Shown: one piece after another, positions 2,073-41,342 of the stretch
How positions within the stretch are numbered: the stretch's first letter is position 1
Layout: every line of letters starts with the position of its first letter
Origin: Escherichia coli
Lineage (GTDB): Bacteria; Pseudomonadota; Gammaproteobacteria; Enterobacterales; Enterobacteriaceae
Direction: 5' to 3' (one strand)
Assembly: GCA_026712295.1 (NCBI GenBank)
Contig: GCA_026712295.1_4694.1
Length of the DNA: 41,342 bases
Notes under the pieces: model-generated
What the model saw: only the letters and a program-made list of their open reading frames with translations
Database searches by the model: none
Told to the model about the DNA's origin: nothing
Position numbers and translations under genes: made by a program

Positions 2073-3332
2073 AGCGCACCACATGCTTCAGGGCGCAGAC
2101 CACCGTGACCCATAGCATACTTAGCGATAATCTGGTCTGCTTGGAAGTTAGCTCGACGAGCACGTTCCAGTGCCATATCTTTCAGCTTAACAGTACCAAC
2201 GGCAGAGCGGTGATTGAACAGACCGACAACGTTGTCCAGAGCAACACGGGTGTCACCAGAGGAAGTCTTAGGGAACGCATGTTTCTGACCAGTCGGATTT
2301 GCACCCTCTTCTGGACGGTCTTCGCCAGCACCACCAGCAGTCAGATGCGGAACCTCAATAACTTCGAAGCCCATAACGTTGCGGATAGAGCCAGTAGACG
2401 GGTCAATCAGAGCCTGATAGTTTGCAGCGTTAGGCATCAGAGCAGCCAGAATAGCAGAGTAGTTGTCTGGAGTGGTGTAGAACACACGGTCAGCAGACGG
2501 AACATAGTTGCCAGTCAGCTTGGCACGAGCCAGAGTTAACTGTGCGATAATAGCCTGACCCAGCTTAACTTGGTCTCCCCGAAGCTCAGACTGCTTGCCA
2601 ACTTCCAGTACATGAGCCTTACCGAGACCAGCGATGTTCTCGTTAGACGCAGACGGCAGGTTACACAGTTTAGCCATTTCAGCCAGAACCGCGCCATCAG
2701 CAGCCATCGCAAGAGATTCACCCAACTGTGCGGTATACTCGGAGCGCACGTCATAGTGGTTCATTGCGTCTTCGATGTCGTAAATCAGAACGTCAGCAGT
2801 CAGCAGACCATCAATGTTAATGGTACGCTCAGTGTGCTTCATGTCTTTACGTTTGTCATCGAGGTTCTCACCCGGTTGCAGGTAAGCAGCTTTGGTACGA
2901 CCCAGCACAGGGAACTGCGCGGACTTACCGGACTGGATAGAGCGAACAAGGTGTTTGTTCATAGTTACGGAGGTACGGGTAAATGCAGTCAGAACTTCAC
3001 CACCGAAGACCTTCAGGAACAGAGCCAGTTTATCACCAGCGCTCATACCTTTACCTTGGTCTTTAAGTGTGCTTCATGTCTTTACGTTTGTCATCGAGGT
3101 TCTCACCCGGTTGCAGGTAAGCAGCTTTGGTACGACCCAGCACAGGGAACTGCGCGGACTTACCGGACTGGATAGAGCGAACAAGGTGTTTGTTCATAGT
3201 TACGGAGGTACGGGTAAATGCAGTCAGAACTTCACCACCGAAGACCTTCAGGAACAGAGCCAGTTTATCACCAGCGCTCATACCTTTACCTTGGTCTTTA
3301 CCCATCTGTTGTCCACCATTCATGCTAGCCAT
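2054..3332 (-). CDS. 10A: Major capsid protein (gp10A), reading frame interrupted by a 235-bp tandem duplication (track ORFs 3063..3332 and 2054..3046)
   Basis: N-terminus MASMNGGQQMGKDQGKG (T7-tag-like) with RBS AGAAGGAGA; downstream ORF matches T7 gp10A throughout (GLLTADVLIYDIEDAMNHYDVRSEY, RANFQADQIIAKYAMGHGGLRPEA); removing one repeat copy restores a 347-aa frame. Confidence 0.9.
2831..3300. repeat. Perfect tandem duplication, 2 x 235 bp (2831..3065 and 3066..3300) inside gene 10
   Basis: Both copies read identically from agtgtgcttcatgtc to ccttggtcttta; unit length is not a multiple of 3. Confidence 0.95.
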
Positions 3333-26108: not shown

Positions 26109-26131
26109 CTTCCCAATAGTGAGTCGTATTA
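26109..26131 (-). promoter_or_regulatory. T7-type promoter (phiOR-like), duplicated copy
   Basis: Minus strand TAATACGACTCACTATTGGGAAG. Confidence 0.7.
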
Positions 26132-26397: not shown

Positions 26398-26420
26398 CTT
26401 CCCAATAGTGAGTCGTATTA
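26398..26420 (-). promoter_or_regulatory. T7-type promoter (phiOR-like, right-end promoter downstream of gene 19)
   Basis: Minus strand TAATACGACTCACTATTGGGAAG. Confidence 0.75.
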
Positions 26421-26507: not shown

Positions 26508-28265
26508 TTACCACTCAATGAAGCAGCTAGAGTCTCCATCATCCTCATAGTAGATGTCCACGCCACCAACATCGTAGCTATGGATAGCATCACCACCAAT
26601 GGTCTGTTTCTCCATGTGGTGTTCAAGGAACTCAAGGGTCATCTCTTCTTCACCTACACGGCTGTCCACAAGCATCCCTTCACGAAGGAACTCGATACCC
26701 AATGCGATAGCATCAATGCGGTCATCGTGTGCCACAGCGCCTCGCTCACGGGTCATACGGGTCATCTGATAGAACGCACTGTAGCGGACATCATGTTTCC
26801 CATCAAGGTCACGAGCAGTCTGGTAGTCCTCACGGATAACCTCATCACGAATGACCAGCTTGTGGGCACCCATCAACGGTTCGATAGTATCGCAGATTCG
26901 CATCTCCTTCATGCCCTTAGCACGGATTTCCTCTAAGGCACACTTATGGTGCTTCAGGAGAATCGGAGAGAAAATCTTACCGAACATACCGTCACCGAAG
27001 TTGGACTCGTGGACTACTGTCTGTACCTTCCACTGCTTGGCCTTCTTAGCGAGCTTCTCTAGGGTAGCATCATCGTAACCACCACGGAACCCACCGACTT
27101 CCATCAAGTAGATATAACCATTAAGTGAGTAGAGGACTGCGTACCCGGTCTCATCCTTACCACGACCACTTGGGTCAATGACCAGAATCTTAGACTGATA
27201 CTCAGCGGTACGAGAAGAGCACGTATGGAACGCATGGATGTCGTCACCCTTCAGACCAACGTTAGGGAGTTCCTCATTGCGGTTCTGACGGTTCGGCAAC
27301 CACTGGTAAGACAATGGGGCACGTTCAGGGTCCACAGCGCACACGATAGCATCACGGAGTCGTAGCGGGTACTTCTCGGCATCACTAAGGTTCGGGTTAA
27401 GCATGAACTGAAGTGTGTAGCCAGCTTTACCATATTCGAGTTCACGTTCACGGAGGTCATCCATATCGAATCGAACAGGGTCAGTAGGTTGACCGCGAAG
27501 TAACTCATAGCCTTCATCATACTCTTGCTTGAGCATAGGAGCCAGTCGGTCGCCATAATAGAGAGCCTCAGCGTCATTACGTGGATACTGTGCTGGCCAG
27601 ATTACTGTGCTGTACCCTTTGTTATCCTCAAGTTCCTTGTAGAGCGTCATCTCAGTTTGAGGTGTGCCAAGGTAGATAACACGAGAGGTAGGCAGCGGCT
27701 TAAGTAATGCAGCGAACTCAGTTACCAACGTCCAGAGCTTCTCACGAGCAGAACTCGTAGAGCTATTACCGGGAACCTCAACGTCATCTGCGATAATGAT
27801 GTCAGCACGGCTACCAGTTAACTGACCAGTGATACCTACAGACTTCACAGAGGGTGAGTGGTCGGGTTTAGCCAAGCCAACATCGAAGCTAATCACGGAG
27901 TCACGCTGTCCCGGTCGAGGTTTCAACTCAGAGAGGAACGGAAGGAGGTCGATGATGTTCTTGATGAAGATGGAGTTAGCATCAGCACGTTCCTTAGAGG
28001 CAGACACGATGAGAACCTTAAGTTGAGGGTCTCGCCATAAGACCCACACGACGAACGCACAGGTGATAAAGGACTTGCCGATACCACGGAACGCCTGAAG
28101 GATAAACTTCTTGTGGTCGCCGTTAGCGAGTGTACGTGCCATATCAATCTGACACTTGGTTGGTTTAGGTAAGTTCAGAGCCTTCCATAAGACGAACAGG
28201 AAGGCCACGAAGTCACCCTTAAGTTGCGCCACGATGAGCGCATTCTTGTTTGCTTGAGTAGACAT
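26508..28265 (-). CDS. 19: Terminase large subunit (DNA maturase B) gp19, 585 aa
   Basis: Walker A-like GIGKS, strong similarity to T7 gp19 (one residue shorter than T7); GGAGG RBS. Confidence 0.95.
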
Positions 28266-28280
28266 TGTGGCCTCCTATTG

Positions 28281-28838
28281 TTACTTGGCAGGTTTCTCTA
28301 AGGCAGCAATGTGCTTCTCTAGAGCCTTGATAGTGTCGGTCTTAGATACAGCCCCGTCGATGTTACTAGGTTGGAACATAACGGAAGCGCTCTTCCCTTC
28401 GCTGTCCACGAACTGTGTACCAAATTCACTATCAGACGCAGAAAGCGTTGCACCAACTAAGGAAGCCATACCACCTTCAGGTTCAGGGTCAGCACCAGTC
28501 CACTCTTTGTATACGTCGATTCGAACCATACCGAGTCGCTCAGCGCTTTGCTCATTCAGGAACACCGTCATGAACCCGCTACCCGGTTTAGACTCGACGG
28601 AGCCACCCCAAGTGGACATAAGGGTCTCGAACGTAGCATGTTGCTCAGTGGTGCCATCGCTAAGTTGAACAACGTATTCAACCTTAGAGTACCCCTCTAC
28701 CTTAACCATCTCCGAAGCTGGGATGTCGATACGCCCAACACGAATACCAATATTGTTGAGGTCATACACATCACGACTGTCTGGCGAGCGACCATTGATG
28801 GTCCATAGTGTGCGGGTTCTTGAGTTTGTAGTAGCCAT
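28281..28838 (-). CDS. Hypothetical protein, 185 aa, between Rz and the terminase large subunit (no T7 counterpart at this position)
   Basis: ATG at 28836-28838 with strong RBS AAGAAGGAGAAATAAT immediately after the Rz stop; no recognisable motifs. Confidence 0.7.
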   Translation of the reverse strand: MATTNSRTRTLWTINGRSPDSRDVYDLNNIGIRVGRIDIPASEMVKVEGYSKVEYVVQLSDGTTEQHATFETLMSTWGGSVESKPGSGFMTVFLNEQSAERLGMVRIDVYKEWTGADPEPEGGMASLVGATLSASDSEFGTQFVDSEGKSASVMFQPSNIDGAVSKTDTIKALEKHIAALEKPAK

Positions 28839-28839
28839 A

Positions 28840-29283
28840 TTATTTCTCCTTCTTAGATTGCATTTCAGTTATTGTATTTTGGAGCGCCTTAATCCACGCA
28901 TCCCCTCTTTGAGTTACTCCGATAAGACGCTTACTAAACTCTTCGTCAAGTTCGGCTCGACCATCAACGAGGCATCCACCGTTAGCTTGGAGTTCTCGTG
29001 AGGTGGCTGATAGTTTGACGCGCAAGCGCTTACCATCGTTACGCAAATCATTAATGACCCTATCAGTGCTGCCTTCCAGCGCCGCAAGGTCTTCTTGGTA
29101 TTGTCGTGAGACTTCATTGATAGCAATCTGTTTATCCTCAGTCGCCTTAACTTTCTTAACGTACTCATTGTGCACCTCCTGTTCCCATTTAGTGTTAGCT
29201 TTGTCATATCCGTGGTTATACGCAAGGGTAATACCCAAGGCAAACGCAGCGATTATGGCGTAGCTCTTTAAATTCTTGAGCAT
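28840..29283 (-). CDS. 18.5: Rz-like spanin (i-spanin) gp18.5, 147 aa
   Basis: N-terminal TM segment, KWEQEVHNEYVKKV and YQEDLAALEGSTDR blocks as in T7 gp18.5. Confidence 0.88.
   Translation of the reverse strand: MLKNLKSYAIIAAFALGITLAYNHGYDKANTKWEQEVHNEYVKKVKATEDKQIAINEVSRQYQEDLAALEGSTDRVINDLRNDGKRLRVKLSATSRELQANGGCLVDGRAELDEEFSKRLIGVTQRGDAWIKALQNTITEMQSKKEK
28914..29117 (-). CDS. 18.7: Rz1-like outer-membrane lipoprotein (o-spanin) embedded in Rz in a different frame
   Basis: Embedded ORF with signal-like segment and lipobox-like VSAC followed by a Pro-containing tail (ASNYQPP); start codon choice uncertain. Confidence 0.45.
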   Translation of the reverse strand: MKSHDNTKKTLRRWKAALIGSLMICVTMVSACASNYQPPHENSKLTVDASLMVEPNLTKSLVSVLSE

Positions 29284-29896: not shown

Positions 29897-32105
29897 TTAT
29901 TGGTTTTGAACTAAGATTCGCGTAGGGACTGAACGGGCGTCTTTGTCGTTACGGAAAGTTCTGCCGTTGTTGGAGATTGTGAACTTCAACCAACCACCAT
30001 CAGACGCGATGAAGTAAGCCGCATTGTCACCAATAGGAACGGCGTTCCAGCGACCATTGGTCTGAATCCAGATGGTTCTCCAACGAACATCCTGTGAGAG
30101 ACCTACCGAGACACCACCACCAGCATAGCCTTTCCAGACCTCAGCCCACCCAGCATTCTTATTGACGTATCGACCATCAGCTTGCGCTTGAGTTAACCGT
30201 CCATTGACTAGGTTGTTTACTTCGCTTTTATTGTAGGCATGTTCTCCAAGGCGTTTGTTGACCCAACCGTCGATGTAAGAATCATACTTCGTGATGTATA
30301 AGTTACCATCTGGTGGAATGTACCAGCCTGAGTTGGATGTTAATGTACCATTTGAATCAAACGTATACTCCCTGTTAGCTGCCTGACCAAAGTTAAGCCT
30401 CCACGCCCCAGCGCCGGGGTCTTTGTAAAGATAACCATCGGTGTAGTTATCGCTGGTTTTCATTTGAATATGTCGACGAGCAGAGTTAATCATCAGCAGG
30501 TTCTGTGAGCGAGTCTGTAAGATTCCAGTGAAGTCACCTGATTGTCCAACCGTAAGCCCACCAGCAGCCTCCATATGTCCATTCACTCGCATCTGGCAAA
30601 ATGTGTCGTTAAGGTTAGCCTTCTGGATATACATATAGTACCCATTACCGCTACCACCTAACTCAAATACGTTTGCACGTCCTTGGTCATTCCCCCATAC
30701 GAAGAACCTCATATTTCTATCAGCGAAGTTCTGGTTCACAAGCTGCAACGAGTTCCTTGTTAACACGCTAAACGATTGACCTGCGCCAGCCCTTACTTCC
30801 TTTTCACCAGTAATCTGTCCGGGTGCTACAACATCATTCTTAAAAACAACGTTCTCACCATTAACCGCTTTAATGGTTCCCGCTAAGTTATTCATATTCC
30901 CTAACTTGTCAGCCTCGGTCTTTGCACGGTCAGCTTCACTCTTGGAGCGGTTTGCCTCAGTGTTGGCTCTGTCAGCATGTCCATCAGCGGTAGCAACGTG
31001 TGCAGCGGCTTTGGCAACCTCAGCAGCAGCCTTAGTCACTTCTCCGGCAGCACGATTGGCCTCATCACGGGCACGATTGGCCTCAGAGTTAGAACGGTCA
31101 GCTTGCTTCTTGGCCTCAATTCTTAAAAACAACGTTCTCACCATTAACCGCTTTAATGGTTCCCGCTAAGTTATTCATATTCCCTAACTTGTCAGCCTCG
31201 GTCTTTGCACGGTCAGCTTCACTCTTGGAGCGGTTTGCCTCAGTGTTGGCTCTGTCAGCATGTCCATCAGCGGTAGCAACGTGTGCAGCGGCTTTGGCAA
31301 CCTCAGCAGCAGCCTTAGTCACTTCTCCGGCAGCACGATTGGCCTCATCACGGGCACGATTGGCCTCAGAGTTAGAACGGTCAGCTTGCTTCTTGGCCTC
31401 AGCTACACTTGCGGTCATACTATCAGCATAACCTTTAGCTCGGTTAGCCTCAGAGTTGGAACGGTCAGCTTGCTTCTTGGACTCAACCGCCTGTGCCGTA
31501 GAGACACCTGCCTGTTGGGTTGAGCGGTCAGCTTCACGTTTTGCACGGTCAGCTTCATCTCGCGATCGGTTAGCCTCAGTGTTAGAGCGGTTAGCGTGTT
31601 CATTGGCCTTGTTAACAGCGTTCCAAGCAGACGACTCGCGCTCTTTTACTTGCTTCAGAGGGACAGCATCGTAGTCACTGGTAGCGAACGCTAGGTTCAC
31701 AATCTTACGACCACGGGCATCCAAGTGACCATCATTGTTGACACCAATGGTATCCGCAGTTAGGTCTCGTGCCTCTTCAGCTACGTGCAGCGTCTGAATC
31801 TGTGAGATGTTAAGGTCATACGCACGAAGGATTGAGCCATCAGCAAAGTCAACCAGACGGTCGGTTGCAGAAGTGAATCGACGAATCTCAATCATCTGAT
31901 AACCATCGGCAGCAGTCCACGCACGGGAGGTTGTGATTTGGGTCTTAGTGGTAAAGCGATAGTCCTGATTGAGAACCAACTCTTTACGGTCTTTCCCGAT
32001 GAGTGTCACTTGGACGAACTTACGTGCTAAATACTCAAAGGTAATCGTGAAGTTCACGGCACCGTTCAGCGGGTAAGTACGTACAGTGGAAATTTTGTTA
32101 GCCAT
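29897..32105 (-). CDS. 17: Tail fibre protein gp17, reading frame interrupted by a 283-bp tandem duplication (track ORFs 31116..32105 and 29897..31144)
   Basis: N-terminus MANKISTVRTYPLNGAVNFTITFEYLARKFV and DRLVDFADGSILRAYDLNISQIQTLHVAEEARDLTADTIGVNNDGHLDARGRKIVNL match T7 gp17; C-terminus YFIASDGGWL; removing one repeat copy gives a 641-aa frame. Confidence 0.88.
30836..31401. repeat. Perfect tandem duplication, 2 x 283 bp (30836..31118 and 31119..31401) inside gene 17
   Basis: Both copies identical from attcttaaaaacaacg to gcttgcttcttggcctca; unit length not a multiple of 3. Confidence 0.95.
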
Positions 32106-32153: not shown

Positions 32154-32176
32154 CTTCCCAATAGTGAGTCGTATTG
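32154..32176 (-). promoter_or_regulatory. T7-type promoter (phi17-like)
   Basis: Minus strand CAATACGACTCACTATTGGGAAG. Confidence 0.8.
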
Positions 32177-40038: not shown

Positions 40039-41342
40039 TTAGATACCAGAAGAACGACGCAGGTAGTTACCCTCCCAGCCACAACCAATAACGTTCAGTG
40101 GCGTAGTATGGTCAGAGATAATACGTACTTCATTCAACTGTGCGTTGCCAGCGACCGGGAAGCGGAACTGACCAGTACCAACATTAAGCCCACCAGAGCG
40201 TAACGCATTGGAACCCAAGCGAGCACCCGCCATGTCATAGCTGAACAGTCGAGAGGTGTTCTCCACTTCTACAGTGAATGCACCAGAGTCCTCATAGTTC
40301 ACCCACGCTCGGCGTAACTGCAAGCGCCCAATACCCTCGGTAGCTGTCGAGCCATCATCAGCAGTCTTCTTGATGAGGAACTTAGAGAACACATAACGGA
40401 AGTTGATAGCCAAGCCAACGTAGATTGTCTCATCCTCACGGTTCCCACTCATTGACAACACAGGGACACCATTAGGCCAACCACCACGCGGAGGGTCGAA
40501 CCACGAGACCTGACCATCAGAGGCCACAATGTAGAACCTACCAGTCCAATATTGCATCCCATAGATGTCTACAGGCTTCACAGTGGTAGTGTAAGTGTCA
40601 TCGTTGTAGGCACCTTTAGGAATCACATACTTTATCTTGTTGTCGATGTACAGCCGATATGGTTCATCGTTGAAGTCAATGGAGTTCTTCGTAAAGTGTG
40701 CTCGGCACATCCAAGTGTGGGACTGGTTGCGCAACACAAGGTACATCGTTGAGCCGATAGAGTCACAAGCCAGAACCGTTACGTTACTTCCAAGTTCCCA
40801 ATGTGACCACGACTGTTGAGCAATCTCTTCGTTGAGGTACAGGAATTTGTACAGGAAGATTTTACTCGGAGCGTTCGCAGAGAGCACGGAGATAAAGTTC
40901 TCAGTACCGGAGCCACGAATGGAGAACACACCGTTCGGAATGTAACTTGGAACGTGAGCACTCATATCCTCAGCAGACTTCACGGAGCTAACATCCTGTA
41001 CCGCATAGTAACGGTTAAGTGACGTATAGGAAGCACGAGGTGACGCAAAGTACACACCACGCCCAACGCCAAAAGGTCTCGCTCGGTCTGACACATCGAA
41101 CTCTGTCGTGAGGTTCAACTCTACTGACTTCGGTGAGAGGATACCTTGAGCAGACAACACGAACTGTGCTTGGTCTGACCATAGGAGCAACTCTTCGGAG
41201 AACGGTACAGCGTACTTCAGGATAGAGATTCGGTTATGGGACACAGCCACGTCAATTGGGTCATCGTCGGACAGGTTAGCCACGGACGCAGGGAACAGTG
41301 AGAAATACTTTGATGTACGGGACATTACAATGTTCTCACCAG
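40039..41342 (-). CDS. 12: Tail tubular protein B (gp12), C-terminal part; N-terminal part is at 1..1234 across the circular wrap
   Basis: C-terminus GCGWEGNYLRRSSGI identical to T7 gp12; the track start at 41325 is an artefact of a t/g mismatch with the window-start copy (CTG Leu at 140-142). Confidence 0.9.
   Translation of the reverse strand, partial: GENIVMSRTSKYFSLFPASVANLSDDDPIDVAVSHNRISILKYAVPFSEELLLWSDQAQFVLSAQGILSPKSVELNLTTEFDVSDRARPFGVGRGVYFASPRASYTSLNRYYAVQDVSSVKSAEDMSAHVPSYIPNGVFSIRGSGTENFISVLSANAPSKIFLYKFLYLNEEIAQQSWSHWELGSNVTVLACDSIGSTMYLVLRNQSHTWMCRAHFTKNSIDFNDEPYRLYIDNKIKYVIPKGAYNDDTYTTTVKPVDIYGMQYWTGRFYIVASDGQVSWFDPPRGGWPNGVPVLSMSGNREDETIYVGLAINFRYVFSKFLIKKTADDGSTATEGIGRLQLRRAWVNYEDSGAFTVEVENTSRLFSYDMAGARLGSNALRSGGLNVGTGQFRFPVAGNAQLNEVRIISDHTTPLNVIGCGWEGNYLRRSSGI
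41184..41342. repeat. Window-edge overlap: 41184..41342 repeats 1..159 (circular wrap), one mismatch
   Basis: 159-nt identity except g at 142 versus t at 41325. Confidence 0.95.

Follow-up and report, generated by a model that had tools for sequence, protein, structure and literature searches.

Gene Organization between Rz and the Terminase Gene

The window (i.e., the whole 41,342-nt stretch of DNA analyzed here) is a lytic T7-like phage contig deposited inside an Escherichia coli genome assembly, and the phage is a Berlinvirus of the BA14/285P/PZJ0206 type; sibling E. coli assemblies (LI079, LI081, and others) harbor the same phage. Between the lysis genes and the large terminase gene lies an open reading frame designated here as ORF X, with the following surroundings:

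28281..28838, minus strand: ORF X ("gene 18.9 slot"), 185 aa plus stop, 20.0 kDa, pI 4.8, matching phrog_20446
28840..29283, minus strand: Rz-like i-spanin (gene 18.5), upstream of ORF X, matching Pfam Phage_lysis and phrog_1327
~28914-29168, minus strand: Rz1/18.7 frame nested in gene 18.5
28846..28851, minus strand: Shine-Dalgarno sequence AAGGAG of ORF X, inside the final Rz codons
28271-28276, minus strand: ribosome binding site AGGAGG of gene 19, within the 15-nt gap between ORF X and gene 19
26508..28265, minus strand: terminase large subunit (gene 19), downstream of ORF X, with Pfam and PHROG matches
32156..32176, minus strand: phage RNAP promoter phi17, upstream of gene 17

ORF X, the strand of which was left out of the initial annotation, is intact from ATG to TAA (185 codons), and the N-terminus of its product reads MATTNSRTRTLWTINGRSPDS. 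A 1-base gap separates the Rz stop codon TAA (28840-28842) from the ORF X ATG (28838-28836), the junction reading AAG AAG GAG AAA TAA T ATG; counted from the TAA, the start codon begins at the second base, in agreement with the 2 nt given in the initial annotation, and the AAGGAG sequence corresponds to the strong ribosome binding site described there. At the other end, 15 nt separate the ORF X stop codon (28281-28283) from the ATG of gene 19 at 28265; gene 19 encodes a large terminase of the T7 type (Pfam Terminase-T7_RNaseH-like, E = 8e-40). In T7 and T3, gene 19 does follow 18.5/18.7 directly, as had been claimed, and a counterpart of ORF X is absent from T7, T3, and KP32-like phages. We reject a derivation of ORF X from Rz or gene 19, whether as a frame-disrupted fragment or by read-through; its frame differs from that of Rz, it stands as a separate gene in all relatives, and the related phages presented no sign of a derivation from a neighboring gene. 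The GC content of ORF X (50.0%, versus 48.5% for the genome) and its GC3 are genome-like. A 133-aa GTG-initiated ORF antisense to ORF X (28267-28668, plus strand) is without support and is best regarded as a spurious by-product of the coding strand.

The phage RNAP promoter consensus was found in 13 copies on the minus strand. Because ORF X is flanked by phi17 and by the next same-strand promoter downstream (26400-26420), which lies past gene 19, it can be placed in a late 17-17.5-18-18.5/18.7-X-19 transcription unit; no sigma-70-like promoter or terminator belonging to ORF X was found.

Several tandem repeats were observed elsewhere in the contig. A perfect 283-bp tandem duplication in gene 17 (30836-31118 and 31119-31401) breaks gp17 by a frameshift into a 329-aa and a 415-aa ORF; with one repeat copy removed, gene 17 is a single open ORF of ~642 aa, like that of PZJ0206. 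Likewise, a perfect 235-bp tandem duplication (2831-3065 and 3066-3300) truncates the major capsid gene, which without one copy is a 347-aa ORF starting MASMNGGQQMG and resembling the N-terminus of T7 gp10. Because a phage with genes 10 and 17 both broken would not be viable, these two duplications are most likely assembly errors. A near-perfect 291-bp tandem repeat across the 3′ end of gene 19 (26073-26363/26362-26652) doubles a phiOR-type promoter (perfect copies at 26111 and 26400), while a near-perfect 212-bp tandem repeat (25118-25329/25333-25544) is probably a joined direct terminal repeat. The window ends overlap by 159 bp (1-159 = 41184-41342); the repeats and the end overlap explain why the contig exceeds related genomes by about 0.8-1.5 kb in length.

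Distribution and Domain Organization of the ORF X Family

The exact ORF X protein corresponds to WP_268100746.1/MCY4724460.1 ("hypothetical protein LI080_21925 [Escherichia coli]"). A hypothetical protein of PZJ0206 is 99.5% identical to it, and proteins of equal length with 90-97% identity are encoded by 285P, BSP161, P483, FE44, BA14, and others; in total, relatives of the same length and frame were found in at least 17 phage records (90-99.5% identity), bearing out the proposal of a 185-aa gene between Rz/Rz1 and gene 19. The phrog_20446 profile spans residues 1-185 (E = 3.8e-126) and the phrog_27102 profile covers the N-terminal domain (E = 1e-46). Both PHROGs are labeled "unknown function" and do not differ from the family of ORF X itself; their members include BA14 ACF15774 ("unknown product"), Yepe2 YP_002003356, and PZJ0206 QMV34438 ("hypothetical protein"), and every family entry in public sources is named "hypothetical". 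The existence of the gene is therefore not new, as it has been in GenBank since the BA14 and Yepe2 deposits and is represented by a PHROG; no study of ORF X and no assigned function were found in the literature.

ORF X was matched to 15 clusters when 5.8 billion proteins were searched with a word index, and an exhaustive HMMER profile search, run over 1.8 billion representatives, detected the N-terminal domain in ~20 clusters, none of which presented a fusion of this domain to a characterized domain; a scan of viral contigs yielded only carrier genomes that were already known. All members with genomic context presented an Rz-like gene of ~147 aa upstream and a gene (TerL where identifiable) starting 11-16 nt downstream. 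This Rz-X-gene 19 slot was observed in the window, BA14, Yepe2, PZJ0206, vB_YpP_T3, and metagenomic members, and it is kept at 25-35% identity and beside quite different fibers or spikes. This very narrow orphan family was found only in BA14/Berlin-type T7-like phages.

Alignments and an AlphaFold model delineate four segments in the ORF X protein:

28491..28838, minus strand: beta-rich conserved N-domain, aa 1-116 (alignments; model pLDDT about 80-90)
28476..28490, minus strand: acidic Pro-rich hinge DPEPE, aa 117-121 (alignments)
28359..28475, minus strand: variable small beta-module, aa 122-160, specific to the BA14 group (low-confidence model)
28296..28337, minus strand: C-terminal amphipathic heptad helix, aa 168-181, TIKALEKHIAALEK (alignment and model)

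The model has an overall pLDDT of 74 (about 80-90 over the N-domain and 52-62 beyond it) and consists of an N-domain with seven strands and one helix, and a further helix at residues 168-181. Invariant alignment columns in the N-domain define the motifs NGRxPDSRD, GRIDIP, EGYSKVEY, and IDVYKEW. The hinge is also invariant and represents the border at which members exchange C-terminal modules. The C-terminal region differs in kind by member: the window shares a small beta-module with the BA14 group; Yepe2, Berlin, and Yep-phi have a Trp-rich module; vB_YpP_T3, PYPS50, and pEa_SNUABM_57 have a module of ~100 aa; and the metagenomic member P0027 has a phrog_5004-type module. In most cases, the region ends with either a short heptad helix or the tail "LKxALGI". 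The window-type 64-aa C-terminal part was found only in 18 BA14-group records. The heptad helix is a putative oligomerization element; its a-d pattern of Ile/Leu extends over ~2 heptads in the window protein and ~3.5 in the family member P0007 (a coiled-coil element would be expected to span at least 3), and it weakly resembles designed coiled coils (E = 0.4-5). In another family member (P0004), the C-terminal unit "PSNIDGAV..IKALEKRI.ALE" is doubled in tandem. The protein has no transmembrane segment, as initially noted (maximum 19-aa Kyte-Doolittle mean of 0.49), and no signal peptide, hydrophobic N-terminus, or Cys lipobox was found.

Selection, Module Exchange, and Loss

ORF X is a genuine gene under purifying selection; across eight genes of same-length relatives, the pooled pN/pS was 0.12 over codons 1-121, rising to 0.40 over codons 122-185. 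Between the window and the Yersinia phages, the holin, TerS, Rz, and TerL share 90-98% identity and the gp17 adaptor and gp16 share 96% and 90%, respectively; the N-domain of X is 58-65% identical and the C-terminal parts are unrelated. X alleles sort independently of gp17. Yepe2 and Yep-phi, as compared to vB_YpP_T3, have gp17 tips with 95-97% identity and unrelated X C-modules; PYPS50 combines a BSP161-like gp17 tip with a vB_YpP_T3-like X; and in the BA14 group, with hosts that differ (E. coli, Salmonella, Enterobacter, and Erwinia), X is 94-100% conserved and gp17 tips are 76-92% identical. Both the conservation of BA14-type X across hosts with differing gp17 tips and the unrelated C-modules in Y. 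pestis phages with nearly identical tips weaken the direct host-range role that had been suggested. ORF X is firmly characterized as modular, with swapped modules, and as rapidly diversifying.

The slot is also found without a complete ORF X. Berlinvirus BP12A cleanly lacks the gene and retains the gene 19 ribosome binding site, and the ORF table of vB_ShiP-A7 contains no ORF X (PMC8427288). Carena (L003 1013-1240) carries a natural in-frame 330-nt deletion within ORF X, equivalent to window positions ~28383-28712 and flanked by a 5-bp GCTTC microhomology, that joins aa 1-42 to aa 153-185. ORF X is thus dispensable, since it is absent from T7, T3, BP12A, and vB_ShiP-A7 and internally deleted in Carena, which supports the accessory nature initially attributed to it. 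At the P0029 locus (L024 5827-6582), the N-terminal part is apparently split into 34-aa and 193-aa ORFs, suggesting that this locus is in decay.

A second group of genes occupies the same slot in phages of other Studiervirinae genera. Erwinia phage vB_EamP-L1 "gp18.9", Dickeya phage JA10 gp48, and a Pantoea phage Bubbas protein (all phrog_5004) sit between Rz and TerL at the following positions:

L021 2039-2719: vB_EamP-L1
L022 2201-2818: JA10
L023 2183-2797: Bubbas

The proteins of this gp18.9 group, which also includes Pantoea phage SK1, are 200-235 aa long and likewise orphan; a family search on the group was equally narrow, with nothing informative. Their C-module is absent from the window protein. 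The ORF X family and the gp18.9 group share a weak collinear N-terminal similarity, and P0027 is a natural chimera of an ORF X-family N-domain and a gp18.9-type C-module. With this chimera removed, the N-part similarity gave an hhalign E value of 3.7e-4 (probability 36%), which is only suggestive of homology between the two N-domains.

Homology and Fold Searches

No significant Pfam match to ORF X was obtained (the top entry, DUF7152, at E = 0.18, was well below threshold), and NCBIfam and PDB-sequence searches gave no match; models of known anti-phage defense components (PADLOC) yielded 0 families at E <= 1. These results are in line with the earlier statement that no motif could be recognized, and the remote homology searches likewise gave no characterized homologue. 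A Foldseek search of BFVD with the ORF X model returned solely its own family.

C-modules of relatives resemble tail-fiber families by sequence. The long members carry a 100-aa module with matches to a genuine side-tail-fiber protein, which has the domains phage_tail_N, gp37_trimer, and Phage_tail_C_2, to a protein of 2506 aa that includes an endosialidase chaperone domain, and to adhesins of the RTX/cadherin type, as well as to phrog_6578 "tail fiber" (E = 2e-4 for P0007 and 1.6e-5 for P0014); the phrog_5004-type module matches phrog_23820 "tail fiber". The phrog_6578-type module is not present in the window protein, the 64-aa C-terminal part of which is unrelated. Fold searches with ORF X lean to receptor-binding proteins, with weak scores, and point to beta-sandwich folds such as those of the R2 pyocin fiber PA0620, the phi812 receptor-binding and CBM protein, the T7 gp17 tip, and phage K gp144; exchangeable C-terminal parts, as in the ORF X family, are also a feature of the distal modules of phage and pyocin receptor-binding or tail-fiber proteins.

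ORF X has no paralogue in the genome. It has no Pfam match to the gp17-type adaptor domain Phage_T7_tail; the family profile aligned to the phage's own gp17 gave hhalign probabilities of 0.1% (N-part) and 0.6% (C-part), and no C-module presented similarity to the gp17 of the same phage. Origin by duplication or exchange was rejected, with hhalign probabilities no higher than 1.4% when the family profile was aligned to each minus-strand ORF in the genome.

Possible Functions of the ORF X Product

We tentatively prefer a reading in which the ORF X product is an oligomeric auxiliary protein that binds the virion or cell surface, of fiber or decoration type and possibly lectin-like. This reading is favored because of late co-expression, fiber-type modularity, the fiber-related modules in relatives, and the bias of the fold searches. 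The soluble, acidic protein consists of a beta-sandwich-like N-domain, the DPEPE hinge, an exchangeable C-module, and a short heptad helix; it would be made together with the structural proteins, may oligomerize via its C-terminal helix, and would act outside the replication, packaging, and lysis core. Such a small fiber- or decoration-like adhesin, virion-borne or freed at lysis, could bind a carbohydrate or envelope ligand; oligomerization, virion association, and ligand binding are all properties that we infer. T4 Hoc, T5 pb10, phi29 gp8.5, and phage L Dec are non-essential capsid decoration or auxiliary fiber proteins, and by analogy the proposed ORF X product would resemble them in being small, dispensable, late, built from an anchor domain and an exposed module, and possibly oligomeric. 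The virion-associated role put forward in the initial annotation, or a fiber-like one, stands as the best guess, given the fiber-matching C-modules in relatives and the lean of the fold searches to receptor-binding proteins. Three observations argue against a surface protein, namely, the weak fold scores, an N-domain that diverges much faster than the virion parts on which it would dock, and the conservation of ORF X across different hosts.

A further proposal, which we consider rather unlikely at present, is that the 18.7-19 slot of several Studiervirinae genera holds an unrecognized cassette gene, "18.9", whose conserved N-domain would dock on the T7-type particle and show interchangeable fiber-derived modules; the genera concerned would be Berlinvirus and possibly Elunavirus, Ningirsuvirus, and the Pantoea phages.

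A serious rival, albeit one of low probability, is that ORF X encodes a non-structural, intracellular late effector that binds and neutralizes a host factor, such as a defense sensor or an abortive-infection trigger responding to late proteins (terminase, portal, or capsid, for instance). An arms race with this target would then account for the fast evolution of the N-domain and the swapping of C-modules, and both the hotspot behavior of the locus and its independent assortment fit such a role; however, expression solely from the late promoter unit would be late for counter-defense, the libraries searched (the PADLOC defense models, Pfam, and NCBIfam) provided no match, and the tail-fiber-related C-modules and the predominance of receptor-binding proteins among fold matches would be left unexplained.

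An accessory factor of lysis (holin, spanins) or of DNA packaging (gp18, gp19) is improbable. Only the position fits this reading: ORF X is strictly kept between Rz/Rz1 and gene 19, and the gaps of 1 nt and 15 nt suggest translational coupling, but T7, T3, BP12A, and vB_ShiP-A7 package and lyse without ORF X, and the putative partners are conserved at the 90-98% level whereas X is not, in either its N-domain or its C-modules. In addition, because the protein has no transmembrane segment, signal peptide, or lipobox, it could not reach the envelope before lysis.

A recently inserted moron or selfish element (the former having been raised initially), or a decaying functionless relic, would fit the lack of ORF X in T7, T3, and some Berlinviruses and the deleted or decayed forms in Carena and at the P0029 locus, but is highly improbable and largely refuted by selection and synteny. 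The pN/pS of the N-domain and the native composition speak against it, as does the location inside the phi17 unit, where ORF X brings along neither a promoter or terminator nor a mobility gene; moreover, the slot stays constant in lineages with as little as about 25-35% identity and possibly in further genera. The moron reading in particular was rejected.

Implications for T7-Like Phages

The modular build of ORF X, its dispensability, its hotspot behavior, and the possible link to gp18.9 are new but modest findings. The virions and late operons of the T7 group are considered fully catalogued; if the preferred surface-protein reading or the effector reading holds, ORF X would add a new virion accessory or late host-interaction factor with an orphan fold, while a minor accessory gene without phenotype would merely be another annotated hypothetical protein. 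The locus beside the terminase gene would also provide a natural, tolerated insertion and display site for phage engineering, with a scope that covers BA14/Berlin-type therapeutic and diagnostic phages against E. coli, Salmonella, and Y. pestis. If the "18.9" cassette proposal is true, the podovirus architecture that has been studied best would gain an auxiliary adhesin or decoration component not seen before.
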